A stretch of DNA of 64,000 bases from contig JBEKSC010000010.1 of NCBI GenBank assembly GCA_049517415.1, positions 1 to 64,000 of the forward strand, read 5' to 3'. The notes under the pieces were generated by a model, which ran no database searches, was not told where the DNA came from, and saw only the letters and a program-made list of their open reading frames with translations. This document shows positions 6,656 through 64,000 of the stretch, piece by piece. A program made the translations under genes and the position numbers. Within the stretch, counting starts at the first letter, position 1; each line of letters opens with the position of its first letter. This DNA is from Candidatus Bathyarchaeia archaeon. GTDB taxonomy: Archaea > Thermoproteota > Bathyarchaeia > 40CM-2-53-6.

Positions 6656-7879
6656 TTATCGGTCGGGAATCGGAACAGACCGTGACGAGTCCTTTATTCG
6701 GTGATTGATTTCGTCTCCCCTCGCAATTGCAAATTTGAGGATGTTGCAGATAACATCGATACTTTCAACATCAACAGTCGTACCGTTTGGCAGATTCAAC
6801 ACTTGGTTAGCTAACTCCTCCGTGTGAGGTAAACGGAGAGCGGGCTGGCGCGAACGATAAGGGGCCATTCGATGGCACCCGGGGTAGAAGTAGCGCCGTG
6901 CTAGCACGTTTTCCGCCCACAATATATTCTGTATCTGATTTCGGTTGATTTTGCTTGCAGAGTCGTCAATTTCCAGAATTATGTATTGATAATTGCATTT
7001 TTCGTTTTCGTCATACGATAACATTGAAATTCCTGGAAAATCAGCTAAGTTCAGCTTGTATCGAACGTAGTTACGGTAGTTGACGTCAATGAACTCTCCT
7101 ATACTTTCTAATGAAGTCAATCCCATAGCAGCCGCGACTTCGGTCATTTTACCATTCGTTCCAGTGCTGACAACATCATCATAGCCGGCGAATCCGTAGT
7201 TCCTCATTAAACGAACCCTTACCGCTAAATCGTCATCGTTTGTCACTATCGCGCCACCTTCAAATGAGTTTAGGTACTTCGTCGCGTGAAAGCTGAAGAT
7301 CTCTGCGTTTCCAAAGGTTCCGATCATACGTGTCCTGTAGGAACAGCCAAACGCGTGGGAAGCGTCAAAAATCAATTTGAGCTTACGGCGTCGAGCAATG
7401 TCGCTCAACTCATCGATAGCGCACGGGCGCCCCCATAGATGCACTGCGGCAATGGCGGTCGTATACGGGGTAATGAGCTCCTCCACATGAGAGGCATCCA
7501 TGTTGTGGGTTCTACGCTCGATATCGCAGAAAACAGGCCGGACGCCAAGCCAATCCAAGGAGTGGGGGGTAGCAATGGCTGTGAACGATGGAACGATTGC
7601 TTCACCCCGAACCCCGAGAGCTCGAATCGTGATGCCCAACGCGATAGTAGCGTTGCAAGTGGCAATGCAATGTTTAGCGCCTACCGTGTCGGCGATTCTT
7701 CGTTCAAACTCTTGGACGAATGGACCATTATTGGTCAGCCATCGTCCATCTAAAATTTGGTTGACGCGTTCTAGAAAGCGTTCCCTGTTGCCGAGATTCG
7801 GGCGTCCCACATGCAACTTCTCTCTGAAAGCTGGAGTGCCTCCGAAGATGGCGAGGTCATCTAGTTTTTCCTTTTTCAT
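6656..7879 (-). CDS. DegT/DnrJ/VioA-family NDP-sugar aminotransferase
   Basis: DASHAFG, FSFHATK (PLP lysine), EGGAI, GTNGKM, RRYFYP. Confidence 0.92.
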   Translation of the reverse strand: MKKEKLDDLAIFGGTPAFREKLHVGRPNLGNRERFLERVNQILDGRWLTNNGPFVQEFERRIADTVGAKHCIATCNATIALGITIRALGVRGEAIVPSFTAIATPHSLDWLGVRPVFCDIERRTHNMDASHVEELITPYTTAIAAVHLWGRPCAIDELSDIARRRKLKLIFDASHAFGCSYRTRMIGTFGNAEIFSFHATKYLNSFEGGAIVTNDDDLAVRVRLMRNYGFAGYDDVVSTGTNGKMTEVAAAMGLTSLESIGEFIDVNYRNYVRYKLNLADFPGISMLSYDENEKCNYQYIILEIDDSASKINRNQIQNILWAENVLARRYFYPGCHRMAPYRSRQPALRLPHTEELANQVLNLPNGTTVDVESIDVICNILKFAIARGDEINHRIKDSSRSVPIPDR

Positions 7880-29973: not shown

Positions 29974-31098
29974 ATGCGAATCCTCCACGTGGTGCACAGG
30001 TTTTTTCCGCCGACCGTAGGGGGGCTTTCATTTCACGCTCACATGCTATCCGTTGAACAGGCAAGGCTTGGACACGAAGTGGTGGTTTTTACTTCTCAGG
30101 AGCATGGTTATCCTGAGTACGAGCGAAAGGATGGGTACGAGATCTATAGATTTAAGCCGTTAGTTCGACCGATGGACAATCCGCTTAACTTCCGATTGTT
30201 GTCATCACTACTCAAGTACGATGCATTCGACATACTTCACGCCCACTCCCACCTGATGTTCACGACTAACTTCGCGGCTCTAAAAGCGAAAACTTCCAGA
30301 AAGCCCTTCGTGATTACAAATCACGGATTCAAAGTAGAACGGGGTAAATTCCTTAACTTCGTTCAAGACGTCTACCTATCGAGTGTGGGTAGACTCTCTC
30401 TCACCGCCGCCGACTCCGTTGTGAGCTTCACTGATTCGGAACGTAAGAAGACGATCAATGCGGGTGTCGCTTCTAGGCGAGCAGTCCTCATTCCAAACGG
30501 GGTTGACACGAAGTTCTTCCGTCCCCTTGCTGTTGAACCTGTCCCTCATAGCGTGCTCTGGGCAGGGAGATATGTGCCCGAAAAGGGCGTGCGCTTCCTT
30601 CTGGAAGCAGCTAAGATTGTCGTGAATGCGTTTCCTGATGCAAGATTTTTCCTTGTAGGTTATGGCAAAGGTTTGGCTGAGACGATTAGATTCAGAAATG
30701 TTCTCGGTCTAAGCAACCACGTAGACATGTTCAATGTAATGGAGCAAGGGAGATTACTGAAGTTGCTCAACCGGTGCACCCTCTTCGTATTGCCGAGTCT
30801 CAGTGAGGGACTTCCAAGCACTGTCCTTGAAGCGATGTCCTGCGGAAAGCCAGTCGTCCTTACTGCCAATATTGGCCTGGAAGAAGTAGTCGGTGACGCC
30901 GGTCTCTATTTCCCTAGGCGAGATTCGAAAGCGTTAGCCAACGCTATAGTGACCCTTCTGGCAAACAAGGAGTTAGGTGATGAGCTTGGAAAACGGGGGA
31001 GGGAGAGGGTAAGATCATCGTACGATTGGCCTCAAATTGTTGAAAAGGTAAACGCATTGTACACCAAAGTGATCGAGAATAAGCGACGGTCGGATTGA
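29974..31098 (+). CDS. Glycosyltransferase family 4
   Basis: PNGVD, GRYVPEKG, SEGLPSTVLEAMSCGKPV. Confidence 0.92.
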   Translation: MRILHVVHRFFPPTVGGLSFHAHMLSVEQARLGHEVVVFTSQEHGYPEYERKDGYEIYRFKPLVRPMDNPLNFRLLSSLLKYDAFDILHAHSHLMFTTNFAALKAKTSRKPFVITNHGFKVERGKFLNFVQDVYLSSVGRLSLTAADSVVSFTDSERKKTINAGVASRRAVLIPNGVDTKFFRPLAVEPVPHSVLWAGRYVPEKGVRFLLEAAKIVVNAFPDARFFLVGYGKGLAETIRFRNVLGLSNHVDMFNVMEQGRLLKLLNRCTLFVLPSLSEGLPSTVLEAMSCGKPVVLTANIGLEEVVGDAGLYFPRRDSKALANAIVTLLANKELGDELGKRGRERVRSSYDWPQIVEKVNALYTKVIENKRRSD

Positions 31099-52166: not shown

Positions 52167-52448
52167 TTACTTGGCGCTACGGTCGGCGATTTCTTTAGCT
52201 ATCTCTTCCTTAGTCTTTCCCTCAGTTACAATGCCTAAGCTCTTTCCCGCTACGATTAGGGGGTCTGCGCTTGCCTCAATTGTGGTCGTCGTGGCGGTAG
52301 GCGTATTCATTTCCTTGGCAGCCTTGTCAAACTCCTTCTTTGCAAGGCCTATGGATTTTGCCAGTTCAGGTAGCTTCTGCGGTCCCCATAGAAATACCAC
52401 TAGGAGAATACCTACGATTACGAGCCACTCGTAACCAATTAGAGCCAT
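52167..52448 (-). CDS. tatA: Twin-arginine translocase TatA/E
   Basis: G.E, TM, WGP.KLPELAKSIG.A.KEF. Confidence 0.92.
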   Translation of the reverse strand: MALIGYEWLVIVGILLVVFLWGPQKLPELAKSIGLAKKEFDKAAKEMNTPTATTTTIEASADPLIVAGKSLGIVTEGKTKEEIAKEIADRSAK

Positions 52449-52575
52449 CCATCTTCACACTCGGGATTGCCATGTCGCCCAATATAAGACTGACGCGTGA
52501 TTGATGCAGATTTCCGCCTTTTCTCGCGAAGAATGAAATATTCCAATTACAAGGCCATGGCAAAGACTATTGTGT

Positions 52576-53652
52576 TTATTGTGTCTGGTTTCGATTCGGT
52601 CGATCCGAGGTTGGACCTATCACTTTGTACCCATAATGGTATGCGGCTATTCCTGCTACTGGAAGGTCAAGCCAAAAAGTTACAATCCTTGACAGGAGTG
52701 CTGCTGAGGCTGCGACGGCAACGGGGACTCCGAACAAAGACAGCGAGGCAGTGATTGCGGTCTCATATATCCCAAGCATTCCAGGAACCGCAATAGGCGT
52801 CATCTGAATCATTTCACCAATTGCCCCGGTAACTAGCACGACCCAGAGGGAAACAGAAGAGCCGACGGCTACGAGAACAACCCAGAGTATCAACACTGAG
52901 CACGCCCAGTCACCTAGACATGCGGCGAACGAGGTCGCAATAAGCATCCTTGAAGAGAGCATCCGACGAAAGGTCGTGTGATAATCCTCCAAGAATTCGC
53001 CCGCCTTCCCGTTCATTCTTGCTTGTTTTTGTAGAATTTTGAGTACGGGCTGAACCAGTCTTAGAACACGGTCCAAGAGTGGTTGCATTATCTTCGGATT
53101 CAGGGAAAGAAAGAGTGAGGCGATTAGCCCTGCCACTGCAAGTAGTGGTACTGCTGCTAGTTGAAAAACTATTGAAGTCGTTACACGGCCTCCAAAGATA
53201 AGGACCACGAAGGCAAGGGATGTGGTTGCTAGAAAACCGACGATGTAGAGAACTCGGTGCAGGATAACCGTGGCAGTGGATTCTCCTAGTGTCATTCCAG
53301 ACTCCTTCGAGGCCAAGATGCATCTTACTGCTTCAAGGAAGATACCGCTCGGCATAGTGTAGCTCGCAAAAATGCTCGCGAACGTAATTCCTTGGCAAGT
53401 TAGAAACGGAAGTCTAGCATCCGTAGATCGGATTAGGGCATACCATGCAGTCGAATACAAGGCGAAGCCAAGAAGTTGGACAGTAACCATCGCTAGAATA
53501 ACGATGGGGTTAACTTGGAGAAGTACGCGGACAAGGGAGTTGAGCCCGACAAAATAGATGAAAGCCACTAGAATCGATATCCCTACCGCTAAGCTGGCAA
53601 GCCTCGTGATTCTTGCTTTGTTGATGGGCTGCACCTCCGATATTGCCGACAA
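52576..53652 (-). CDS. Lysylphosphatidylglycerol synthase TM domain / UPF0104 flippase-like protein
   Basis: PSG..E..R, P..PG.LG.YE, R...FW. Confidence 0.85.
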   Translation of the reverse strand: MSAISEVQPINKARITRLASLAVGISILVAFIYFVGLNSLVRVLLQVNPIVILAMVTVQLLGFALYSTAWYALIRSTDARLPFLTCQGITFASIFASYTMPSGIFLEAVRCILASKESGMTLGESTATVILHRVLYIVGFLATTSLAFVVLIFGGRVTTSIVFQLAAVPLLAVAGLIASLFLSLNPKIMQPLLDRVLRLVQPVLKILQKQARMNGKAGEFLEDYHTTFRRMLSSRMLIATSFAACLGDWACSVLILWVVLVAVGSSVSLWVVLVTGAIGEMIQMTPIAVPGMLGIYETAITASLSLFGVPVAVAASAALLSRIVTFWLDLPVAGIAAYHYGYKVIGPTSDRPNRNQTQ

Positions 53653-54075
53653 ACTACGAGCCAGGCCAGTTGAATCCTGTAATTATCGAATTCATACTTA
53701 TATTCAGTCGCAACCACCATGAATCATATTTAGCTGAGACCGATTCATTTTGAGTCTTTTCAGCGACTACGTCCTAGACGAAAAGACGTTGAGTTCACAG
53801 AACAATCTAAACAAAAGAGCAGACCGAGCGTGCGCCAGTCCTTTACTCCTATGATGAGCATGAGCATCCCGGCGAGGGTCCGTGCTAAAAGGCGTTACAT
53901 GAAGCGATTGATGTCTGATCCTTCGAGGAGGGACCAAGATCAGCTGTAAAGACTGATTCACCATCTACGAGCCCGTCATGACGAAGCTGTCTACATTACG
54001 ATGAACCCAATAACACTAAATGACTGATTGAGATTCAAGCTATTTGGCGCGATTCATTAATCGAAGGGAAAAAGA

Positions 54076-54969
54076 GTGGCGGAAAGTTCTGAACAGACGT
54101 CTATGACAATAATGGAACACATATCGGAGCTAATCAAGCGCCTGAAGGTCGTAATCATCGTGCTTGCGGTGACATGCTCCGTCGGGTTCTTGCCATCTGA
54201 CCTTCAAGGGTACTCGGATCCAATCCACCAATACCGACCAGTAGTCTCGATAATGATGCAGAAAATGAAACACGATTTTCTCCCTAAGAGTGCCACCCTC
54301 ATAGCGTCAGGTCTCGTAGACACGCTTTTTGTTTACATGTACCTCACCTTGCTCATCGGTGTAGTGCTGGCTTCACCAGTTATCGCGTATGAGCTTTATG
54401 CCTATGTCAAGCCAGCTTTGTATCCAAACGAACGAAAATACATCTTGTGGTTCGTAGGGTCTTTTGTCGGGCTCTTTACTCTCGGACTTATAGTGGCCTA
54501 TTTCGCGATAATACCGATTACGTTTCAAATTCTGGTATGGTTCATAACTAATGGAGGAGCAGTTCCGTTCATTGCCATAAAGGACTTCTACAACTGGATC
54601 TTCATGCTTCTTCTGGCATCTGGCATTTTCTATACCATCCCTGTTTTCATCGTACTTCTAGTGCAGTTCAGAATCATCTCGACAAAAGTTCTTTCGGGTA
54701 AGACGAAAATTGCAATCTACCTCGGGTTGTGGATGATCATTTGGACCTTCGGTCCCGATCCAACTCCAATTACCGCTACAATCATAATGCTTCCCTTTTC
54801 GGTAATCTTTGAAGTAGCTGCATTCGCAGCACGAAGAATCGAGAGAAATCGTCCAACAGCGGACACCTATGCTCCACCAAAAACTGAGCTAGGTGCAGTG
54901 GCATGCAGGTTCTGTGGCGGCAACGTCGCCTCGTCGTTCTGTGTAGCATGCGGCAAATCACAAGTCTAG
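54076..54969 (+). CDS. tatC: Twin-arginine translocase TatC with C-terminal zinc ribbon
   Basis: EH..EL..RL, P...YE...YV.PAL...E, PDP; tail CRFCGG....FCVACG. Confidence 0.9.
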   Translation: MAESSEQTSMTIMEHISELIKRLKVVIIVLAVTCSVGFLPSDLQGYSDPIHQYRPVVSIMMQKMKHDFLPKSATLIASGLVDTLFVYMYLTLLIGVVLASPVIAYELYAYVKPALYPNERKYILWFVGSFVGLFTLGLIVAYFAIIPITFQILVWFITNGGAVPFIAIKDFYNWIFMLLLASGIFYTIPVFIVLLVQFRIISTKVLSGKTKIAIYLGLWMIIWTFGPDPTPITATIIMLPFSVIFEVAAFAARRIERNRPTADTYAPPKTELGAVACRFCGGNVASSFCVACGKSQV

Positions 54970-55146
54970 ACAAAACGTCATTCTAGAGGTGTAGCGGTCC
55001 TGAGCCTCAGGGGGTCTTGAATCTTGAATCTAATGAGTTATCGAACCAATTGTCAAGGTGACGGAGTTCTGCGTTTAATTTCCAGACGCCGTAGGAATTC
55101 AGCATTCTTATAGGGAACCGAACGCTGCCCATTCCTGTGAAACGAG

Positions 55147-55512
55147 TTGCCACTCTTCGGATATGAAGGACTAATTATGGCCGCGATACTCATAACACTT
55201 TTCCTGTGGGGTCCATCGAAGATCCCCGAAATGGCCAGAGCAATAGGCCAAGCAAAGAGAGAGTTCGATAAAGCAGCCAAAGAGGTTACGTCGTTTGCGG
55301 ATGTGAAGTCCATCACAACTCCTATCACAGATTCTATTAACAAAACTATCACGAGTCCACTAACGAGCCCCCCAGTGATTAGTAAGCAGACAACACCCCA
55401 GCCTCCTCAAGACCCAGTCATAATTGCCGCGAAGAGTCTGGGCATAAGCACCCTAGGAAAGACGAAGCAAGAACTCGTAACGGAAATAACTAATCTAACT
55501 ACAAAGAAGTAA
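55147..55512 (+). CDS. tatA: Twin-arginine translocase TatA/E (second copy)
   Basis: GYE, WGPSKIPEMARAIGQAKREF. Confidence 0.9.
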   Translation: MPLFGYEGLIMAAILITLFLWGPSKIPEMARAIGQAKREFDKAAKEVTSFADVKSITTPITDSINKTITSPLTSPPVISKQTTPQPPQDPVIIAAKSLGISTLGKTKQELVTEITNLTTKK

Positions 55513-56269: not shown

Positions 56270-56510
56270 ACCTCAAGCAGCCACATGCTCATTATTCCCT
56301 TTAAGTGATTTTATGATTCTCACCTCCGGTTTTGCTCGCCTCCCGCTTGTGTCTGCCTCCCCATTTTCCAGAATTTACATGGCCAGGAATTCTAACAGTG
56401 GCGGTGCTCTAAGCTCTTGCAAAGTCACTGACCTTTCTCAAAATTCTAGGCTTATATCCGCGAGCAGAGCCGTCGAAGTAGCAGAAAATCTTGCAGCGGC
56501 TTCAATCCAG

Positions 56511-56523
56511 CAAAGGTTTTATT
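56511..56523 (+). promoter_or_regulatory. Putative BRE/TATA promoter of cimA
   Basis: CAAAGGTTTTATT, same motif as the other promoters. Confidence 0.55.
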
Positions 56524-56564
56524 CAGCCTCAAAAATACTGCTTCAGAAGGCGGCAGTTTTCATG

Positions 56565-56582
56565 GGTGATAAATTTATCGCC
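56565..56582. promoter_or_regulatory. Palindrome between promoter and cimA (operator-like)
   Basis: GGTGATAAATTTATCGCC with perfect 12-bp core GATAAATTTATC. Confidence 0.45.
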
Positions 56583-56595
56583 AAACCAAGCAGCC

Positions 56596-58266
56596 GTGTT
56601 CACCGTTAGCGAATTTTCTAAACGATCTGTTCCCGAGTTAGTCGAAGTTTACGACACCACGCTTCGTGATGGGAATCAATCAGTAGGCGTAAACTTTACC
56701 GCAACTCAGAAGTTGCGAGTCGCCAAGACCCTAATCGAGGCTGACGTCGACTACGTCGAGGGGGGTTGGCCCAACGAAACGAACCCCACGGATATTGAGT
56801 TCTTTCGGATGGCGAAGGCGTTGGACAACACGGTGTTCTCTCGTGTTACGTCCTTCGGAATGACTCGCCGCCCTAACACGCACCCGGCTAAGGACAAAAA
56901 CCTAGAGTATCTCCTAAAATCAGGCACGGGGACCGTCACAATCTTCGGCAAATCGTGGCCCTTTCAAGTCGAGGCGATCCTTAGGACGACGCCGGATGAG
57001 AACAGGAGGATGATTCACGATTCGGTGGAATTTCTGATCTCACGTCAAAGAAGGGTCATCTACGACGCTGAGCATTTCTTTGACGGGTACAAGGCGAACC
57101 CAGAGTACGCTCTGTCCACGCTAAACGCGGCGCAAGATGCGGGAGCCTCAATGCTCGTGCTCTGTGACACTAGAGGCGGATCCTACCCATCGGAGATCTA
57201 TGAGGTGATCAAGCAAGTGATTGAACAGGTCAGCGTTCCCGTAGGAATCCACGCCCATAACGACCGTGGCCTGGCAACCGCCAACTCACTCTTCGCGGTA
57301 TTGGCTGGGGCGTCTCACGTGCAGGGAACGATGAACGGCCTAGGCGAACGAGTCGGCAACGCCGATCTCATTGAGGTCGTTGCCAATCTACACCTGATGG
57401 GCATACGCACTGAACTTCAACCATCCGAGCTTACCAACTTATCGCGTTTCGCATATGAAATGAGCGGCTTGCGAGAAAATCCGTTTAAGCCCTTCGTAGG
57501 GAAGCATGCATTTGCTCACAAGGGAGGTGTACACGGCGACGCAGTACTCAAGGCAGAAAGGGCGTATGAGTTCTGTGACCCCGCCTCGTTCGGAAACGCC
57601 AGGACTATTACGGTTTCATCCCAGGCTGGTCGCTCAAGTCTGCTGTCCGCAGCCCGGAAATTGGGATTCGATCTTTCGAAGAATGACAGTCGGGTGTTAG
57701 ATCTCCTCAGGGAAGTCAAGTCTCTGGAGGCTTCGGGATGTAACCTTGAGTTTGCCGATGCATCTCTGGAACTTCTTTTCCTACGGACGCTGACTAAGAC
57801 GCGAGACACATTTCGCGTCGTCGACTGGGAAGCTTCCGTTCAGAGCCAAGCTGGGAATTCGTCAGCGCAATGCAGACTCAGCATAGACGTCGGCCAGAAA
57901 GTGGTTGAAACTCATGCAAGCGGAAATGGGCCAGTGAATGCGCTTGATCGAGGCCTTCAATTGGTGCTGAAGAAATCTTTCGGGTCGAGGTTCTCAGCGA
58001 GGCTTATCGGTTATCGAGTGAGAGAGATTGATTCGGAAGCGGCAACCGCGGCTAAGGTTGCGGTGTACATAGACTTTGCCGACGGTCGAAGAACTTGGAC
58101 TACCGTCGCTTCTTCGACCAACATTGTGAAGGCAAGCGTAGATGCTCTAGTCGACGGCTACGCGTACGCTCTCAGAACAGCGGGGCAGGCAACAGGACTG
58201 CAGCGAGATCCGATGCGAAAAGTTCCACTCGGAAAAGCTAGAGGAGATTCCAACGTACGAAAATGA
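56596..58266 (+). CDS. cimA: Citramalate synthase (DRE-TIM family)
   Basis: YDTTLRDG, EGGWP..NP.D, IFGKSW, YDAEHFFDGY, HAHND, AHKGGVH, GNGPVNALD; start uncertain. Confidence 0.88.
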   Translation: MFTVSEFSKRSVPELVEVYDTTLRDGNQSVGVNFTATQKLRVAKTLIEADVDYVEGGWPNETNPTDIEFFRMAKALDNTVFSRVTSFGMTRRPNTHPAKDKNLEYLLKSGTGTVTIFGKSWPFQVEAILRTTPDENRRMIHDSVEFLISRQRRVIYDAEHFFDGYKANPEYALSTLNAAQDAGASMLVLCDTRGGSYPSEIYEVIKQVIEQVSVPVGIHAHNDRGLATANSLFAVLAGASHVQGTMNGLGERVGNADLIEVVANLHLMGIRTELQPSELTNLSRFAYEMSGLRENPFKPFVGKHAFAHKGGVHGDAVLKAERAYEFCDPASFGNARTITVSSQAGRSSLLSAARKLGFDLSKNDSRVLDLLREVKSLEASGCNLEFADASLELLFLRTLTKTRDTFRVVDWEASVQSQAGNSSAQCRLSIDVGQKVVETHASGNGPVNALDRGLQLVLKKSFGSRFSARLIGYRVREIDSEAATAAKVAVYIDFADGRRTWTTVASSTNIVKASVDALVDGYAYALRTAGQATGLQRDPMRKVPLGKARGDSNVRK

Positions 58267-58402
58267 CCAATTTCAGTCGTTGGATGAGCGAAGAAACGAG
58301 GCTGATAGGTAAGTCAAGCCTGCGCGATACGCTTATTAGAATCTCTGCCGTGACGTGTTGACTTCAAGGTCTACGAGTGCGTTGCAAAATAACCTACACC
58401 GC

Positions 58403-58453
58403 TTGACGAAAACGATTGTCCTCATTGCGCTTGTAGACGTTATTCTTCTGTAG
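58403..58453 (+). CDS. Putative ilvB leader peptide MTKTIVLIALVDVILL
   Basis: 10 of the last 12 codons are Ile/Leu/Val; ends 48 nt before ilvB; alternative in-frame starts at 58355, 58358, 58382. Confidence 0.7.
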   Translation: MTKTIVLIALVDVILL

Positions 58454-58487
58454 CCCGTCCTCCAACACGGTTGTTCGGAGGGGCGGG
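58454..58487 (+). promoter_or_regulatory. GC-rich attenuator-like hairpin after the leader peptide
   Basis: CCCGTCCTCCAACA-cggt-TGTTCGGAGGGGCGGG, about 14 bp with two bulges; no U-tract. Confidence 0.65.
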
Positions 58488-58501
58488 GTAATCTAAAGGA
58501 A

Positions 58502-60235
58502 GTGAATACGCTAGACTTGACAAAGATGTCGGGTGCGGAGGCCGTAGTCGAAGCACTGCTACGCGAGGGTGTGGAAGTTGTCTTTGGGCATCCGGGCGGG
58601 GCCAACATGCCGATTTACGATGCCCTTTACGACTTCCAGAACTTCAGGTACACGCCGCTGAATGAGACAAGTCTCCGGCATATTTTGGCTAGGCATGAAC
58701 AGTCGGCCGCTCACATGGCTGATGGATATGCGCGTGCATCAGGAAAGGTTGGGGTGTGCATGGCGACCTCCGGTCCCGGCGCAACAAACCTCATGACTGG
58801 ATTGGCCACTGCGTACATGGATTCGTCGCCGGTCGTGGCGATCACGGGCCAAGTTCCCTCCTTCGTAATAGGAACCGACGGCTTTCAGGAGATTGATGTC
58901 GTTGGAATGGCGACATCTGTAACAAAATACACTTTTCAACCCCTCCGCGTTCGAGACGTACCATATTCAATCAAGGCCGCATTTTACTTGGCCACAACCC
59001 GGCGGCCTCAGCCCGTTCTGATCGACATTCCAAAAGACGTTCAGCAAGCGGAGGATGAAGTGGAGTTCCTCGAATCTGTAAACTTTCCAAATTACGGCCC
59101 CCTACCAGACCCTGATCCAATGGTGGTGAAAACTATTAGCCGCGCAATCCTCGATGCACAGCGTCCAGTAATATTAGCCGGCGGAGGTGTCAAAATGGCG
59201 AACGCCTACCGCGAGCTTCAAGCATTTGCTGAATTTCTCGTCGCGCCGGTCGTAACGTCCTTCATGGGAAAGGGAGCTTTTCCGGAGAATCATCCCCTCT
59301 CGCTAGGCTGCATGGGGATGCATGGATCAGAACGCACGAACAAACTCATCCCTGAATGCGATGTGCTACTAGTGGTGGGTTCGAGACTTTCCGACAGGAC
59401 AACAGGCAAGATCGAGAAGTTTGCGCCTAATACGAAGGTTATTCATATCGACGCTGACAAAGCGGAGATCGGCAAGAATTACAAACTTCCAGTCGTATCA
59501 CTTGTCGCTGACGCGAAAAAGGCTCTGCAGGCAATAATTCGTGAGGTGGAAACCGGTATGATGGGCCGACAGCGCGACGCATGGGTCAAACGCGCACAAG
59601 AGGTGGTGGTAACGGCGAGGACAGAGCTCGACGGAAACGGTTCACACTTGAGTGGCCCAGAAACGATTAGAATGCTTCGCAGATTTATTCCACACGACGC
59701 CATAGTGACGACAGAAGTCGGCCAACATCAGATGTGGTGTGAGCAGAACTTTCAGGTAATCATGCCGAGAACGTTCTTTAGCTCAGGAGGGCTTGGGACG
59801 ATGGGGTTCGGATTCCCCGCAGCCCTAGGAGCTAAAGTCGCTAGGCCTGACGTTCCGGTTTTCGATGTCGCCGGGGACGGAAGTTTTCTGATGACCGAAA
59901 ACTCACTCGCGACCAGCGTTGAGGAACAAATTCCGGTAACAGTCGTCATTCTGAATAACCGGATGCTGGGAATGGTAGCCCAATGGCAACGCTTTTTCTA
60001 CAACCGCCGCTACTCCGCCGTGCACCTTGGCAAGTCGCCAGATTTCGTGAAACTAGCAGAATCTTACGGAGCTGAAGGAGTTCGCGTAAGCACAATCCTA
60101 GAGCTTGAAACCGCCGTCAACAGAGCAATGCGCTCTCCCGTTACAACCGTCATAGATGTCCCAATCTCACCGGAAGAGAACGTACTCCCGATGCTGCCGC
60201 CTGGGGCTGGAATCAAGGAGATGGTTGTCGGATGA
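58502..60235 (+). CDS. ilvB: Acetolactate synthase large subunit
   Basis: FG.PGG, RHEQ, TSGPGATN, VGQHQMW, SGGLGTMGFG, GDGSF...NN TPP motif. Confidence 0.96.
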   Translation: MNTLDLTKMSGAEAVVEALLREGVEVVFGHPGGANMPIYDALYDFQNFRYTPLNETSLRHILARHEQSAAHMADGYARASGKVGVCMATSGPGATNLMTGLATAYMDSSPVVAITGQVPSFVIGTDGFQEIDVVGMATSVTKYTFQPLRVRDVPYSIKAAFYLATTRRPQPVLIDIPKDVQQAEDEVEFLESVNFPNYGPLPDPDPMVVKTISRAILDAQRPVILAGGGVKMANAYRELQAFAEFLVAPVVTSFMGKGAFPENHPLSLGCMGMHGSERTNKLIPECDVLLVVGSRLSDRTTGKIEKFAPNTKVIHIDADKAEIGKNYKLPVVSLVADAKKALQAIIREVETGMMGRQRDAWVKRAQEVVVTARTELDGNGSHLSGPETIRMLRRFIPHDAIVTTEVGQHQMWCEQNFQVIMPRTFFSSGGLGTMGFGFPAALGAKVARPDVPVFDVAGDGSFLMTENSLATSVEEQIPVTVVILNNRMLGMVAQWQRFFYNRRYSAVHLGKSPDFVKLAESYGAEGVRVSTILELETAVNRAMRSPVTTVIDVPISPEENVLPMLPPGAGIKEMVVG

Positions 60236-60744
60236 GCCAAGACGCGCAGTTACGAATCATATCCGCCCTAGTAGAGAATAAACCTGGGGTTCTCTATCGT
60301 ATCTCTAATTTGGTTCGTAGGAAGTCATTCAACATCGAAAGCATTGCGGTTGGCCATGCAGAGACCCCTGGGTTAGCAAGAATGACTTTCACAATGTTCT
60401 CGGATTACAGCCGGTTCGATCAGGTGATGAAAAACATAGACAACCTGATCGATGTTCGAAGCGTTGAACCGCTCGAAGAAAGAAACGCAACGATTCGTGA
60501 ACTTGCCCTCGTGAAGTTTTCGCCCGGCGCTCCGGTCACGAGGCAGGAGGTAATGAGCTTCATAGAAACATTCCGGGCCAATATCGTAGACATGTCGCCA
60601 GAAACTCTCACTGTTGAAATTTCTGGTGACTCGGACAAGATCAATGCGTTCATAGATCTTGCGAGAAATTTCGGCCTCAAAGAGGTGGCTCGGACAGGTA
60701 CGGTCGCTCTAGCTCGTGAAATGATAATTAAAAGGGGTACGTGA
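60232..60744 (+). CDS. ilvN: Acetolactate synthase small subunit
   Basis: LVENKPGVL, FNIESI.VG, RELALVK, EVARTG. Confidence 0.95.
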   Translation: MSQDAQLRIISALVENKPGVLYRISNLVRRKSFNIESIAVGHAETPGLARMTFTMFSDYSRFDQVMKNIDNLIDVRSVEPLEERNATIRELALVKFSPGAPVTRQEVMSFIETFRANIVDMSPETLTVEISGDSDKINAFIDLARNFGLKEVARTGTVALAREMIIKRGT

Positions 60745-60745
60745 G

Positions 60746-61735
60746 ATGGCTAAAGTATACTACGATAAGGACATAGATCTTTCTCCAGTTGTCGGAGCAA
60801 AGGTTGGCGTGATTGGGTACGGCAGCCAAGGCCGGGCCCAAGCACTAAACCTTCGAGATTCCGGCGCGGAAGTCTTCGTGGGCTTACGCAAAGATGGAAA
60901 GTCATGGAAGATGGCGGAAAGCGATGGTTTTCACCCGTTGACGATTAGGGACGCGACCGCCAAAGCCGATGCCCTCCTATTGCTAATCCCCGACCCCCAG
61001 CAGCCAACCGTCTTCACCTCCGAGATTGCTCCAAACCTCAAAGCAGGCAAGACGCTTAGTTTCTCCCACGGTTACAACATTCGCTTCGGCGACGTTGTTC
61101 CCTCAAAGGACATAGACGTAGTGATGGTTGCACCGAAGAGTCCTGGCCAGAGACTTCGTGAACTGTACGTGAACGGGTTCGGCGTTCCTGCTCTTTTCGC
61201 AGTTCATCAGAATCCATCGGGGCGGGCACGAGAATTTGTTCTTGCGTTGTGCAAGGGGATTGGCGCGTCAAGGGCCGGAGTGTTCGAAACCACTTTCAAG
61301 GATGAAACCGAATCGGGTCTTTTCGGTGAACAAGCGGTACTCGTCGGCGGCCTCATGCGCCTCATCATCGAAGGATATGAGACTCTCGTCGCCGCCGGAT
61401 ATCCACCGGAACTATCCTACTACGAAAGCTGCAACGAAATGAAACTCATAATGGACCTCGTATACCAGTACGGATTCGTCGGAATGTTGCGACGAGTGTC
61501 CGACACCGCAAAATTTGGCGGTCTCACAGTGGGACCCAAAGTTATAGACAAGACCGTACGCGGTCACATGCAAGAGGTGCTGAAGGAAATTCGGTCCGGA
61601 GCATTCGCAAAGGCATGGACCGGAGACCGGGAGAAGAGCGCCCAAGCTCTCGACGCTATGATGCGTGAACTCGAAAATCATTCAATCGAAAAAGTGGGCA
61701 GAGACATTCGGAAACTCTCGGGCCTCGAAAAATAG
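60746..61735 (+). CDS. ilvC: Ketol-acid reductoisomerase
   Basis: IGYGSQG.A, NLRDSG, APKSPG, LFGEQ.VL.GG, SDTA. Confidence 0.96.
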   Translation: MAKVYYDKDIDLSPVVGAKVGVIGYGSQGRAQALNLRDSGAEVFVGLRKDGKSWKMAESDGFHPLTIRDATAKADALLLLIPDPQQPTVFTSEIAPNLKAGKTLSFSHGYNIRFGDVVPSKDIDVVMVAPKSPGQRLRELYVNGFGVPALFAVHQNPSGRAREFVLALCKGIGASRAGVFETTFKDETESGLFGEQAVLVGGLMRLIIEGYETLVAAGYPPELSYYESCNEMKLIMDLVYQYGFVGMLRRVSDTAKFGGLTVGPKVIDKTVRGHMQEVLKEIRSGAFAKAWTGDREKSAQALDAMMRELENHSIEKVGRDIRKLSGLEK

Positions 61736-61751
61736 TGCCAGGTGAACAGAC

Positions 61752-62780
61752 ACGAATTACACTATAGCGTTCATGGAGGGCGATGGGATAGGTCCAGAAC
61801 AATCGCTAGCCACAAAGGAAGCTCTTGCAGAAGTCGACCGCATTTATGGTGTGGCGTTGAATATTGTACCGATCGAAGCGGGAGATCGGGCTCTTAAGGC
61901 GCACGGGGCGGCCCTACCAGAAAAGAGCCTCGAAACCATCAAGCAAAGCGACTGTTGCCTCAAAGCCCCAATTGGCGAGTCAGCATACGATGTCATCGTT
62001 CGCTTAAGACAACGACTGGATCTTTATGCAAACGTTCGACCGGCAAAATCGCTTCCGAATGTGCCGTGTCTGAATTCCCTTACCGACTTGATCATCGTGA
62101 GGGAGAATACGGAGGACTTGTACGTCGGTCTGGAGGCAGGCGACAATAATAGGGCAACTGCTACGCGCGTCATATCTAGAAAGGCCTCCGAACGAGTTGC
62201 GAAATATGCGTTCGAGCTAGCCCGCGAGCGAAGAAACTCTGTCACGGCGATTCACAAAGCCAACGTCATGAGGAAGACCGACGGACTCTTTCTCTCGGCT
62301 TGCAAAGAGGTGGCCTCGATGTATCCAGGCGTTGGTTTCTCAGATATGCTCGTAGACGCAGCAGCAATGAACCTCATACGGAATCCTGAGCAATTCGATG
62401 TTCTCGTCACGACTAACATGTTTGGCGACATACTTTCCGACGAAGCGGCTCAAGTCGCGGGTGGCTTGGGCATCGCAGCCTCGGGGAATATTGGCGACGA
62501 TTTCGCCATATTCGAACCCGTGCATGGCTGCGCACCAGACATCGCGGGGACCAACACGGCTAATCCGACTTCGCTCATACTCTCCGCGGCAATGATGCTG
62601 AACTGGCTGGGGCGGCATAAGCATGACAATCAAGCGACTCTCGCCTCGCGGGCGCTTCAAGGAGCCGTGGAAGTTTGTCTCTCGCGTGGAGAAGTTACAC
62701 GCGACCTTGGAGGTAGCCTTGGGACTCTGGAAATGGGTAGGGCAGTAAAGTCACAATTCAGCCAGGTGGTCGTGGAATGA
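61752..62780 (+). CDS. leuB: 3-isopropylmalate dehydrogenase
   Basis: YTIAF.EGDGIGPE, RENTE.LY, HKANV, NMFGDILSD, EPVHG.APD; start placed at ACG 61752 (first ATG 61773). Confidence 0.88.
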   Translation, partial: TNYTIAFMEGDGIGPEQSLATKEALAEVDRIYGVALNIVPIEAGDRALKAHGAALPEKSLETIKQSDCCLKAPIGESAYDVIVRLRQRLDLYANVRPAKSLPNVPCLNSLTDLIIVRENTEDLYVGLEAGDNNRATATRVISRKASERVAKYAFELARERRNSVTAIHKANVMRKTDGLFLSACKEVASMYPGVGFSDMLVDAAAMNLIRNPEQFDVLVTTNMFGDILSDEAAQVAGGLGIAASGNIGDDFAIFEPVHGCAPDIAGTNTANPTSLILSAAMMLNWLGRHKHDNQATLASRALQGAVEVCLSRGEVTRDLGGSLGTLEMGRAVKSQFSQVVVE

Positions 62781-64000
62781 GTTCACCTCTCCGAATCTTC
62801 GATACAACTCTCAGGGACGGAGAACAGACACCCGGAGTATCCCTAACTCCCGACGAAAAGGTCAAAATCGCTCGCCAACTCGACAAACTAGGCGTTGACG
62901 CAATAGAGGCCGGGTTTCCAATCGCTTCAGCGGGTGAATGGGAATCAGTTTCAGCTGTAGCGAAAGCAGGCCTGTCATGCGAAGTCGTCGGTTTAGCGCG
63001 AGCCAACAAGCTTGACATTGACAAGGCGCTTAGTGCAGGCGTGGAATCCGTTCACGTATTCATAGCCACCTCCGACCTTCACCTGAAGTACAAGCTAAAA
63101 CTAACCCGAGAGCAGGTGCTCGACCGCATAGCCGAATCGGTTACGTACGCAAAACGCCAAGCTCGAATAGTCGAATTCTCAGCCGAAGACGCGACGCGGA
63201 CTGAAGCAGAATTCCTAAGAAAAGCCTACGAAACAGCCGAACGCTCGGGCGCGGGTCGATTGAATATACCCGACACAGTCGGAATCTCCTCGCCCCAAAG
63301 CATCGCAAGAATTACGCGAGAAGTTGTGTCTGCAACAAGTGTCCCAGTGAGCATCCACTGTCACGATGACTTTGGACTTGCGGTGGCTAACAGCCTAGCC
63401 GCGATCGAGGCTGGAGCAACTCAAGCACATGTCACCGTCAACGGCCTCGGCGAGAGAGCGGGCAACACTTCACTCGAAGAGCTAGTGATGTCCCTACACA
63501 GACTCTACGATCGACGTACAAGAATCAAGACGGAGCTTCTCAGCGAGACATCAAAACTCGTAGCGTCACTAACCGGAGTTCGTGTGCAACCCAACAAGGC
63601 AGTGGTAGGCGAGAACGCCTTTGGGCATGAATCCGGAATCCACACTCACGGCATAGCAGAAATGCCACTGACATACGAACCGTACGACCCCGCGCTCGTC
63701 GGTCGCCGACGTTGGTTTCAGGCGGGTAAGCATGCGGGCGCGCACGGTATTGCGACTCAACTCGCTGAAGCTGGATTCTTTCCCGACAAGAATCAACTAG
63801 CGGAGGTTGTTACGCGAGTGAAGGACATCGGGGACAAAGGTAAGACGGTTACTGACGCTGACCTAATCGCGATCACCGAAGCCGTGTTAGGCAAAACTAC
63901 GGGGAGGGAGCGCATCATAGACCTTGTGGATCTTGCAGTCGTGACCGGAAAAGGGCTTCTTCCCACAGCGTCAGTACGCCTCCGACTGAGCGGGAAGGAG
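62777..64000 (+). CDS. leuA: 2-isopropylmalate synthase (LeuA-like), truncated by window end
   Basis: MSSPLRIFDTTLRDGEQTPG, IEAGFP, HCHDD.GLA.AN, GERAGN, HESGIH; ATGA overlap with leuB. Confidence 0.88.
   Translation, partial: MSSPLRIFDTTLRDGEQTPGVSLTPDEKVKIARQLDKLGVDAIEAGFPIASAGEWESVSAVAKAGLSCEVVGLARANKLDIDKALSAGVESVHVFIATSDLHLKYKLKLTREQVLDRIAESVTYAKRQARIVEFSAEDATRTEAEFLRKAYETAERSGAGRLNIPDTVGISSPQSIARITREVVSATSVPVSIHCHDDFGLAVANSLAAIEAGATQAHVTVNGLGERAGNTSLEELVMSLHRLYDRRTRIKTELLSETSKLVASLTGVRVQPNKAVVGENAFGHESGIHTHGIAEMPLTYEPYDPALVGRRRWFQAGKHAGAHGIATQLAEAGFFPDKNQLAEVVTRVKDIGDKGKTVTDADLIAITEAVLGKTTGRERIIDLVDLAVVTGKGLLPTASVRLRLSGKE

Follow-up and report, generated by a model that had tools for sequence, protein, structure and literature searches.

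The cimA–ilvB locus and its leader

In a 64-kb stretch of a Bathyarchaeia contig (the whole stretch analysed, hereafter the window), the gap between the genes cimA and ilvB holds a short leader open reading frame (ORF) rich in codons for Ile, Leu and Val, with a hairpin, here called P2, directly 3' of its stop codon. Judged from its conservation among related genomes, this ORF is most likely a real, well conserved and functional amino-acid-sensing element in archaea, and it very probably gauges the supply of Ile, Leu and Val. All features of the locus described below lie on the forward strand. Upstream stands cimA, encoding citramalate synthase (TIGR00977 above cut-off), at 56491–58266; these are the bounds of the ORF, and the true start is probably further downstream. 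Downstream, ilvB, encoding the large subunit of acetolactate synthase (TIGR00118 above cut-off), occupies 58517–60235, counted from a TTG at a conserved start position. It is followed at 60232–64000 by ilvN, ilvC, a leuB-type dehydrogenase gene and a leuA-type synthase gene, in this order by NCBIfam matches, which bear out the first-pass annotation in its claim of an ilvBNC-leuBA operon behind cimA. The run continues past the end of the window with four genes which we take to be ilvD, leuC, leuD and ilvE, named from N-terminal sequences and unscanned by profiles.

The short ORF at 58403–58453 exists exactly as that annotation described it, and its last 12 codons (I V L I A L V D V I L L) comprise 3 Ile, 3 Val and 4 Leu. 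While its codons and stop are retained here, the start at 58403 is not, as the frame is open further 5' and the ATG or TTG of relatives aligns with TTG 58382. The leader thus most likely starts at TTG 58382 and encodes a peptide of 23 amino acids (58382–58453, MQNNLHRLTKTIVLIALVDVILL; the 16-codon form would begin at 58403), because the spacing from a TATA-like promoter element to the leader start is 46–49 nt in the 11 loci of the window's genus type where both are readable. We rejected two further candidate starts, GTG 58355 and TTG 58358: neither lies beyond the inferred point of transcription initiation, and several relatives have them out of frame or not at all.

The same genome has 5392 short-ORF ends upstream of genes, and the present one is unique among them in having Ile, Leu or Val at 8 of its last 10 codons, and it also bears a hairpin of −20 kcal/mol. 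The co-occurrence of leader ORF and hairpin in this genome is more than chance. The exact leader peptide is absent from a collection of 15 billion proteins.

Conservation of the leader across the order

We compared 110 distinct ilvB upstream regions, for which only some of 201 matching genomes from one search were drawn upon, after dropping duplicates and two incomplete loci (L026, with 36 nt of upstream DNA, and L041, with its 5' end missing). Forty-two of them represent the order of the window, 39 by kinship label (L046 via its duplicate G273) and three (L033, L042 and L044) by resemblance only; the other 68 come from other Bathyarchaeia orders, together with one unlabelled locus (L045) and one bacterium (L049). 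A rule blind to codon identity, requiring a stop codon 49–78 nt before the ilvB start and, starting no more than 5 nt from that stop, a hairpin at least as stable as −12 kcal/mol, picks out 41 of the 42 loci of the order (the sole failure being L013) and 5 of the 68 others. Counting codons backwards from the stop, Ile, Leu or Val stands at each of positions −4, −3 and −2 in all 41 of the former and in none of the latter. The conserved upstream ORF rich in Ile, Leu and Val codons, with its hairpin, is therefore found before ilvB in related archaea, and the comparison strongly supports the earlier proposal of such a sensing leader coupled to a hairpin in an archaeon. Unless stated otherwise, the counts below refer to these 41 loci.

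An in-frame start codon lies 20–40 codons 5' of the stop in 40 of the 41 loci, compared with 5 and 0 for the other two frames. The only locus lacking one is L020, from a genome whose ilvB has internal stops. The N-terminal part of the leader varies freely in sequence and length, with the frame retained.

Control codons

The control codons, −7 to −2, read L V D V I L in the window (58430–58447), with Val-Ile-Leu at −4 to −2. Over all loci these 246 codons comprise 109 Val, 66 Leu and 55 Ile, 230 in sum, with 1 Ala and neither Phe nor Met. Phe and Met thus account for 0 of 230 NUN codons, as opposed to about 22% in hydrophobic stretches of ORFs from the same genome. The T at position 2 in 230 of the 246 codons amounts to a three-base periodicity. 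Codon −1 is unconstrained, Gln, His and Lys being among those found there, and the stop itself varies (TAG in 28 loci, TAA in 7, TGA in 6). Comparison of loci between families argues that selection acts on the encoded amino acid of the control codons, because exchanges among Ile, Leu and Val predominate (1858 pairs, together with 1013 synonymous, 715 identical and 482 other) and Phe and Met are excluded.

The choice among synonymous codons is strongly biased, with GTA making up 56% of Val codons (22% in ilvB), ATT 76% of Ile (21%) and CTT 42% of Leu (17%). Codons ending in G are nearly absent, and GTG, CTG, TTG and ATA are avoided. A preference for GTA, ATT and CTT is compatible with the theory that control codons are those read by a single heavily used tRNA; the bias could also reflect a constraint at the RNA level. 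The latter would suit a very unlikely alternative, in which the codons are not a gauge at all and the region serves as an RNA element, a protein-binding site or a fixed level of translational coupling, for which there is a precedent in the ilvB leader of Streptomyces coelicolor, where changing similar codons was without effect according to the accessible text of PMC1262725. Against it stand the three-base periodicity, the retained frame and start, the use of three different stop codons, the exclusion of Phe and Met, the fit of the bias to single-tRNA reading, and a Phe/Tyr version of the layout before lysC in two genomes that also carry the ilvB leader (described below).

The hydrophobic C-terminal half of the peptide would also be expected if the ORF encoded a small membrane peptide that functions in its own right. 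We regard this reading as extremely unlikely and, from the comparison, as already largely refuted: the hydrophobic run is often only 5–8 residues long and interrupted by Asp, Glu, Lys or Ser, the N-terminal half is unconserved, and the ORF occurs in association with ilvB and the hairpin. Furthermore, only 30% of comparable hydrophobic windows in the same genome lack Phe and Met, as the control codons do with a single Ala among the 246.

Hairpin P2 and ribosome geometry

P2 spans 58454–58487, directly after the stop codon, and pairs 58454–58467 with 58472–58487 at −21.4 kcal/mol (fold of 58451–58500; z −2.67 against dinucleotide shuffles). It is GC-rich, holds GGAGG at 58477–81 and has no U-tract, all as described in the first-pass annotation. 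Per-sequence folds recover it in all 41 loci, where its first paired base lies 2–5 nt from the first base of the stop; the median z is −3.87, with values below −2 in 38 loci, and stem positions +3 to +13 show four to six pair types each. The support for P2 comes from such folds, shuffles and pair-type tallies, since its variable stems and loops fall out of register in MAFFT alignments: drawn by hand on one alignment, P2 was off register, with 52% of positions paired and 79% when slid by one. The longest run of U in the 12 nt after P2 is 1–3 in 37 loci and 4 in the remaining 4, so a U-tract is lacking across the order as well. A conserved helix rivalling P2 was found neither in pairing tallies nor in local folds or hairpin swaps over the 41 loci. 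From the end of P2 to the ilvB start there are 16–37 nt, mostly 22–32, with a mode of 30 nt.

The relation between P2 and the translating ribosome was modelled with folds constrained by the ribosome footprint reported for Haloferax (PMC7261190). P2 keeps −12 kcal/mol or better in 41 of 41 loci with the A site at codon −4 and in 39 at −3, compared with 14 at −2, one at −1 and none at the stop; the hairpin is half-open at −2 (−11.1) and melted at −1 (−7.0) or at the stop (−5.3). The earlier proposal had a stalled ribosome hold the hairpin open, and the folds predict the reverse. The invariant codons end at −2, the point from which an advancing ribosome is predicted to unwind P2, which suggests that stalling on them keeps P2 folded.

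The ilvB start region

The GTG at 58502 formerly taken as the ilvB start is not conserved (relatives have GAG or GTA) and sits inside a Shine-Dalgarno (SD)-like element, AGGAAGTGA, at 58497–58505. As TTG or ATG is conserved among relatives at the position of TTG 58517, the latter is most likely the start. The SD-like element is partly complementary to the 3' end of the genome's own 16S rRNA, an end of archaeal type, and elements of GGAG, GAGG or GGTGA type occupy the corresponding place in relatives. With the start at 58517 the element falls outside P2, and the hairpin would not hold the ilvB initiation region as had been supposed, ending 16–37 nt before the start in every locus.

The same sensor could nevertheless act on initiation at ilvB, a somewhat unlikely reading in which a waiting ribosome leaves P2 folded and the ilvB start open, whereas at the stop or after release the G-rich 3' arm of P2 or the pyrimidine-rich last codons would pair with the SD or start of ilvB; polarity could in turn end transcription of an ilvB that is not translated. 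Local folds lend it some support: the median cost of opening the start region is 6.8 kcal/mol with a stalled ribosome, 8.5 with the ribosome at the stop and 8.9 after release, a rise of about 1.7–2.1 kcal/mol. The cost goes up by more than 1 kcal/mol at the stop in 25 loci (down in 3) and after release in 30. The fairly fixed distance from P2 to the start is likewise in its favour, and the LEU element of Actinobacteria, in which Leu codons pair with the SD, offers a parallel (PMC1262725, as far as its accessible text describes it). In whole-leader folds, however, the medians are 7.1–7.7 in all five states modelled, that is, no switch appears. The local effect is also small and unspecific, as it is almost as large when the hairpins are replaced by those of other families (1.33 vs. 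1.66 kcal/mol for the real ones, the real value being higher in 23 loci). Real codons block the ilvB start better than synonymous ones in two groups, the genus of the window and a further family (mean percentiles 0.86 and 0.87), but over all loci they barely beat synonymous or other-family codons (0.61 and 0.58), and pairing between codons and SD exceeds controls in 2 of 9 groups. Anti-SD and alternative-helix models found no support across the order in pairing tallies, local folds and hairpin swaps.

Promoter and helix P1

A putative leader promoter resembling the B recognition element and TATA box of archaea lies at 58324–58339, with its TATA-like heptamer at 58333–58339, and places the inferred transcription start at about 58358–58366. 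Most of the 41 loci have a similar element, about 115–150 nt ahead of the leader stop.

A second helix, P1, absent from the earlier description, is predicted to pair the 5' end of the leader with the leader's own codons. In the predicted fold of 58360–58453 (−23.0 kcal/mol), its 5' arm (58366–58384) takes in the whole short 5' leader together with the leader start codon, and its 3' arm (58423–58441) lies within codons −10 to −4, so that in this model P1 can bury the leader's own start codon. In 37 of the 41 loci the own partners of P1 pair better on average than partners from other families, and in 40 they outdo synonymous shuffles (means −16.5 vs. −12.0 kcal/mol). The own partner is the best of all in only 8 loci and within the top 5% against synonymous shuffles in 15; the promoter was mis-picked for this test in at least one locus (L010). 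A wide-window version of the test gave a weak result, the own partner exceeding 90% of others in 17 loci. RNAalifold on a MAFFT alignment of 14 loci returned only P1, as 7 consensus pairs with two-sided changes in 4 of them, while an alignment of 13 loci of the window's genus type yielded no consensus structure.

Five loci of two families (L027, L028 and L030 of f8; L015 and L021 of f5) carry a mini-ORF, Met-Gly-Leu-Glu-stop or Met-Lys-stop, within the 5' arm of P1, where it either overlaps the leader start or immediately precedes it. It could perhaps load the leader by termination and reinitiation.

A proposed gauge of charged tRNA

Taken together, these features suggest a chain of events that begins with a ribosome that binds the nascent leader while the 3' arm of P1 has yet to be transcribed. 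When Ile, Leu or Val is scarce, the ribosome would wait on the Val-Ile-Leu codons and P2 would fold; the short stretch to ilvB would then be protected or coupled, and RNA polymerase would enter the operon. When all three are plentiful, the ribosome would reach the stop, melt the base of P2 and leave, whereupon P1 would close and block reloading, and the bare transcript would be cut or terminated, most plausibly by aCPSF1/FttA. The whole chain, namely a gauge of charged Ile, Leu and Val tRNA that acts through early termination without an intrinsic terminator, has in our estimate a probability of roughly 45%.

Among the possible outputs, factor-dependent early termination by aCPSF1 is our best guess; control of factor-dependent termination was the second option offered in the first-pass annotation. 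The genome encodes aCPSF1/FttA (TIGR03675 above cut-off, G000:C27). In Saccharolobus, recruitment of aCPSF1 near promoters accompanies low mRNA levels and has been linked to early termination in the accessible text of PMC8448881, and factor-dependent termination is thought to require uncoupling (PMC13681488, accessible part). The U-rich control codons or the melted P2 could provide the loading site for the factor.

Several points weigh against this reading. The 41 leader loci fall in only 8 families and, being related, are not independent, and in only 28 of them do the last seven codons include Ile, Leu and Val together. No pair of mutually exclusive helices was found, and the rather fixed distance from P2 to ilvB fits a link to translation initiation too. 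A preference of aCPSF1 for U4 tracts has been reported (PMC13675443); such tracts follow P2 in only 4 of the 41 loci, and thus no termination signal was identified. The unaltered behaviour of the S. coelicolor ilvB leader upon codon change (PMC1262725) speaks against it as well.

It is distinctly unlikely that the sensor acts instead on mRNA stability or processing, with a stalled ribosome and folded P2 shielding the message from 5'-end nucleases or cleavage. P2 is stable and stand-alone, with neither a rival helix nor a U-tract, the genome has several matches to nucleases of the beta-CASP family, and in Bacillus stalled ribosomes are known to protect mRNA; the shut-off of reloading by P1, however, would better suit a one-time decision during transcription.

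Related leaders and distribution

The layout may not be confined to ilvB. In 2 of the 25 lysC upstream regions inspected for Phe/Tyr leaders (L209, G049:C26; L211, G048:C2), an ORF with a run of Phe and Tyr codons and a hairpin directly after its stop lies about 90 nt before lysC, a gene that in the window's genome opens a lysC-asd-aro run, its last members presumably being aro genes. Both genomes also carry the Ile/Leu/Val leader before ilvB (L025 in G049, L021 in G048), and the Phe/Tyr layout is absent from the other 23 lysC loci. A tentative and somewhat doubtful extension of the proposal is therefore an archaeal attenuation system with a common layout, in which a cognate run ends two codons before the stop, a single hairpin keeps a set position relative to that stop and an intrinsic terminator is lacking, reused with different codons on different operons of the order and read out by aCPSF1. 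If true, this would be transcription attenuation in archaea. With a leader of about 130 nt, a known input of three amino acids and a fixed geometry, it suits reporter tests in a tractable archaeon, which would reveal whether the ribosome steers termination by aCPSF1, and by what means a lineage abundant in soils and sediments, and so far uncultured, adjusts its amino-acid synthesis.

In the genome of the window itself, a scan for other cognate runs with hairpins (Trp, His, Phe/Tyr, Cys, Met, Thr and others) gave nothing convincing, and no cognate leaders were seen by eye before trpE, hom, pheA or cimA, the last of which also shows no leader ORF of the ilvB kind in its upstream region. For hisG, PF01634 has no match in this genome, though its assembly carries a completeness rating of 100%.

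Beyond the class we read another 44 ilvB loci, a repeat of one order locus being excluded. Ten of the 12 loci of family f35, from another class of the same phylum (L166–L177), have a short ORF with 6–8 of its last 10 codons for Ile, Leu or Val. These ORFs lie 29–60 nt before ilvB, mostly have 14–20 codons, are rich in Leu and Val, often end in Val-Leu and are accompanied by weak hairpins. Among the 32 loci from ten other families, two reach 6 of 10 such codons, at about 128 nt and without the layout.

Several observations lie beside this subject. The nearest named relatives of the window's ilvB are mostly Bathyarchaeia, and four records titled Chloroflexota, Methylomirabilota, Acidiferrales and Acidoferrum (L033, L034, L037 and L039) have an ilvB 79–84% identical to it; three of the four duplicate genomes labelled with the window's genus, so the titles look wrong. 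Families f22 and f25 of other Bathyarchaeia orders (L095–L105, L110) have no leader and carry before ilvB a repeated motif that translates as MGYSF, a similar motif also preceding trpE in the window's genome (G000:C20, about 30280–30300); a transcription factor may use such repeats as operator sites. In the window's genus, lysC is preceded by a conserved short ORF of another kind, which has a repeated motif of F-G-G-H-I-Y-G-D-x-Y-W type and no hairpin and often ends about 73 nt before the gene (G000:C20, about 6750–6850 on the minus strand, L186/L187; same-genus L188–L204). The repeat could be one of peptide or of DNA or RNA. Finally, positions 52167–55512 of the window hold, on both strands, two TatA-like genes and one TatC-like gene, so named by resemblance of their translations, and small membrane proteins with zinc-ribbon tails are encoded nearby.

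Comparison with known systems

Leader-peptide attenuators responding to Ile, Leu and Val are well known in bacteria, E. coli ivbL and ilvL being examples. With the classical ilvL/ivbL/leuL type the present leader shares a short upstream ORF, for which a start codon is present in 40 of the 41 loci, and end-product codons near the end of that ORF; missing are the intrinsic terminator, i.e., hairpin plus U-tract, and the antiterminator/terminator pair. Because both of these defining features failed to appear, we do not file the leader as a member of that class. The upstream ORF of ilvB1 in M. tuberculosis, with LVVI codons, likewise has Ile/Leu/Val codons just before its stop and precedes ilvB; according to the accessible text of PMC13236596 it works in the same sense, in that a ribosome at the stop masks a helix left free by stalling. 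What sets the archaeal leader apart from bacterial ilvB attenuators is a single hairpin fixed to the stop, a TATA-type archaeal promoter and the predicted helix P1 over the leader start.

Leaders lacking a terminator also have bacterial counterparts, such as E. coli tnaC, a terminator-less leader peptide with control codons next to the stop and factor-dependent termination. To our knowledge, Archaea have no Rho, and aCPSF1/FttA would therefore take its place. The cys leaders of Actinobacteria share control codons by the stop, the lack of an intrinsic terminator and a proposed Rho-dependent termination, but, in the accessible text of PMC1262725, no conserved hairpin is described for them, unlike the ilvB leader here. 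The LEU element of actinobacterial leuA has in common a run of branched-chain codons in a structured leader and, with some of the lineages studied here, a potential for pairing of codons with the SD (PMC1262725, accessible part); in our loci no pseudoknot was seen, and such pairing exceeded controls only in the two groups given above.

Among archaeal elements, the Rfam motif RF03001 (leuA-Halobacteria) is named for a branched-chain amino-acid gene, and its covariance model, which matched its positive control in Haloferax volcanii, gave 0 matches in the window's genome. An Rfam scan of 58200–58600 brought no family near its gathering score, with one chance match at E 6.9. A Met-Trp mini-ORF before trpY in Methanothermobacter thermautotrophicus has been proposed as an archaeal amino-acid-sensing upstream ORF; consisting of two codons, it acts on translation of a regulator gene and lacks the multi-codon leader and conserved helices before a biosynthetic operon. 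No description of an archaeal ilv leader peptide was found in the literature searched, which leaves out most subscription journals, and the small-proteome papers on M. mazei and H. volcanii contain, in their accessible text, only general remarks on upstream ORFs. The first-pass annotation had stated that leader-peptide attenuation is not established in archaea, which agrees with this search and with a 2021 paper that, in its accessible part, knows of no archaeal example of attenuation (PMC8448881). Undescribed for archaea in the literature found, the leader lacks the terminator and rival helices of a bacterial ilv attenuator, yet would work like one.

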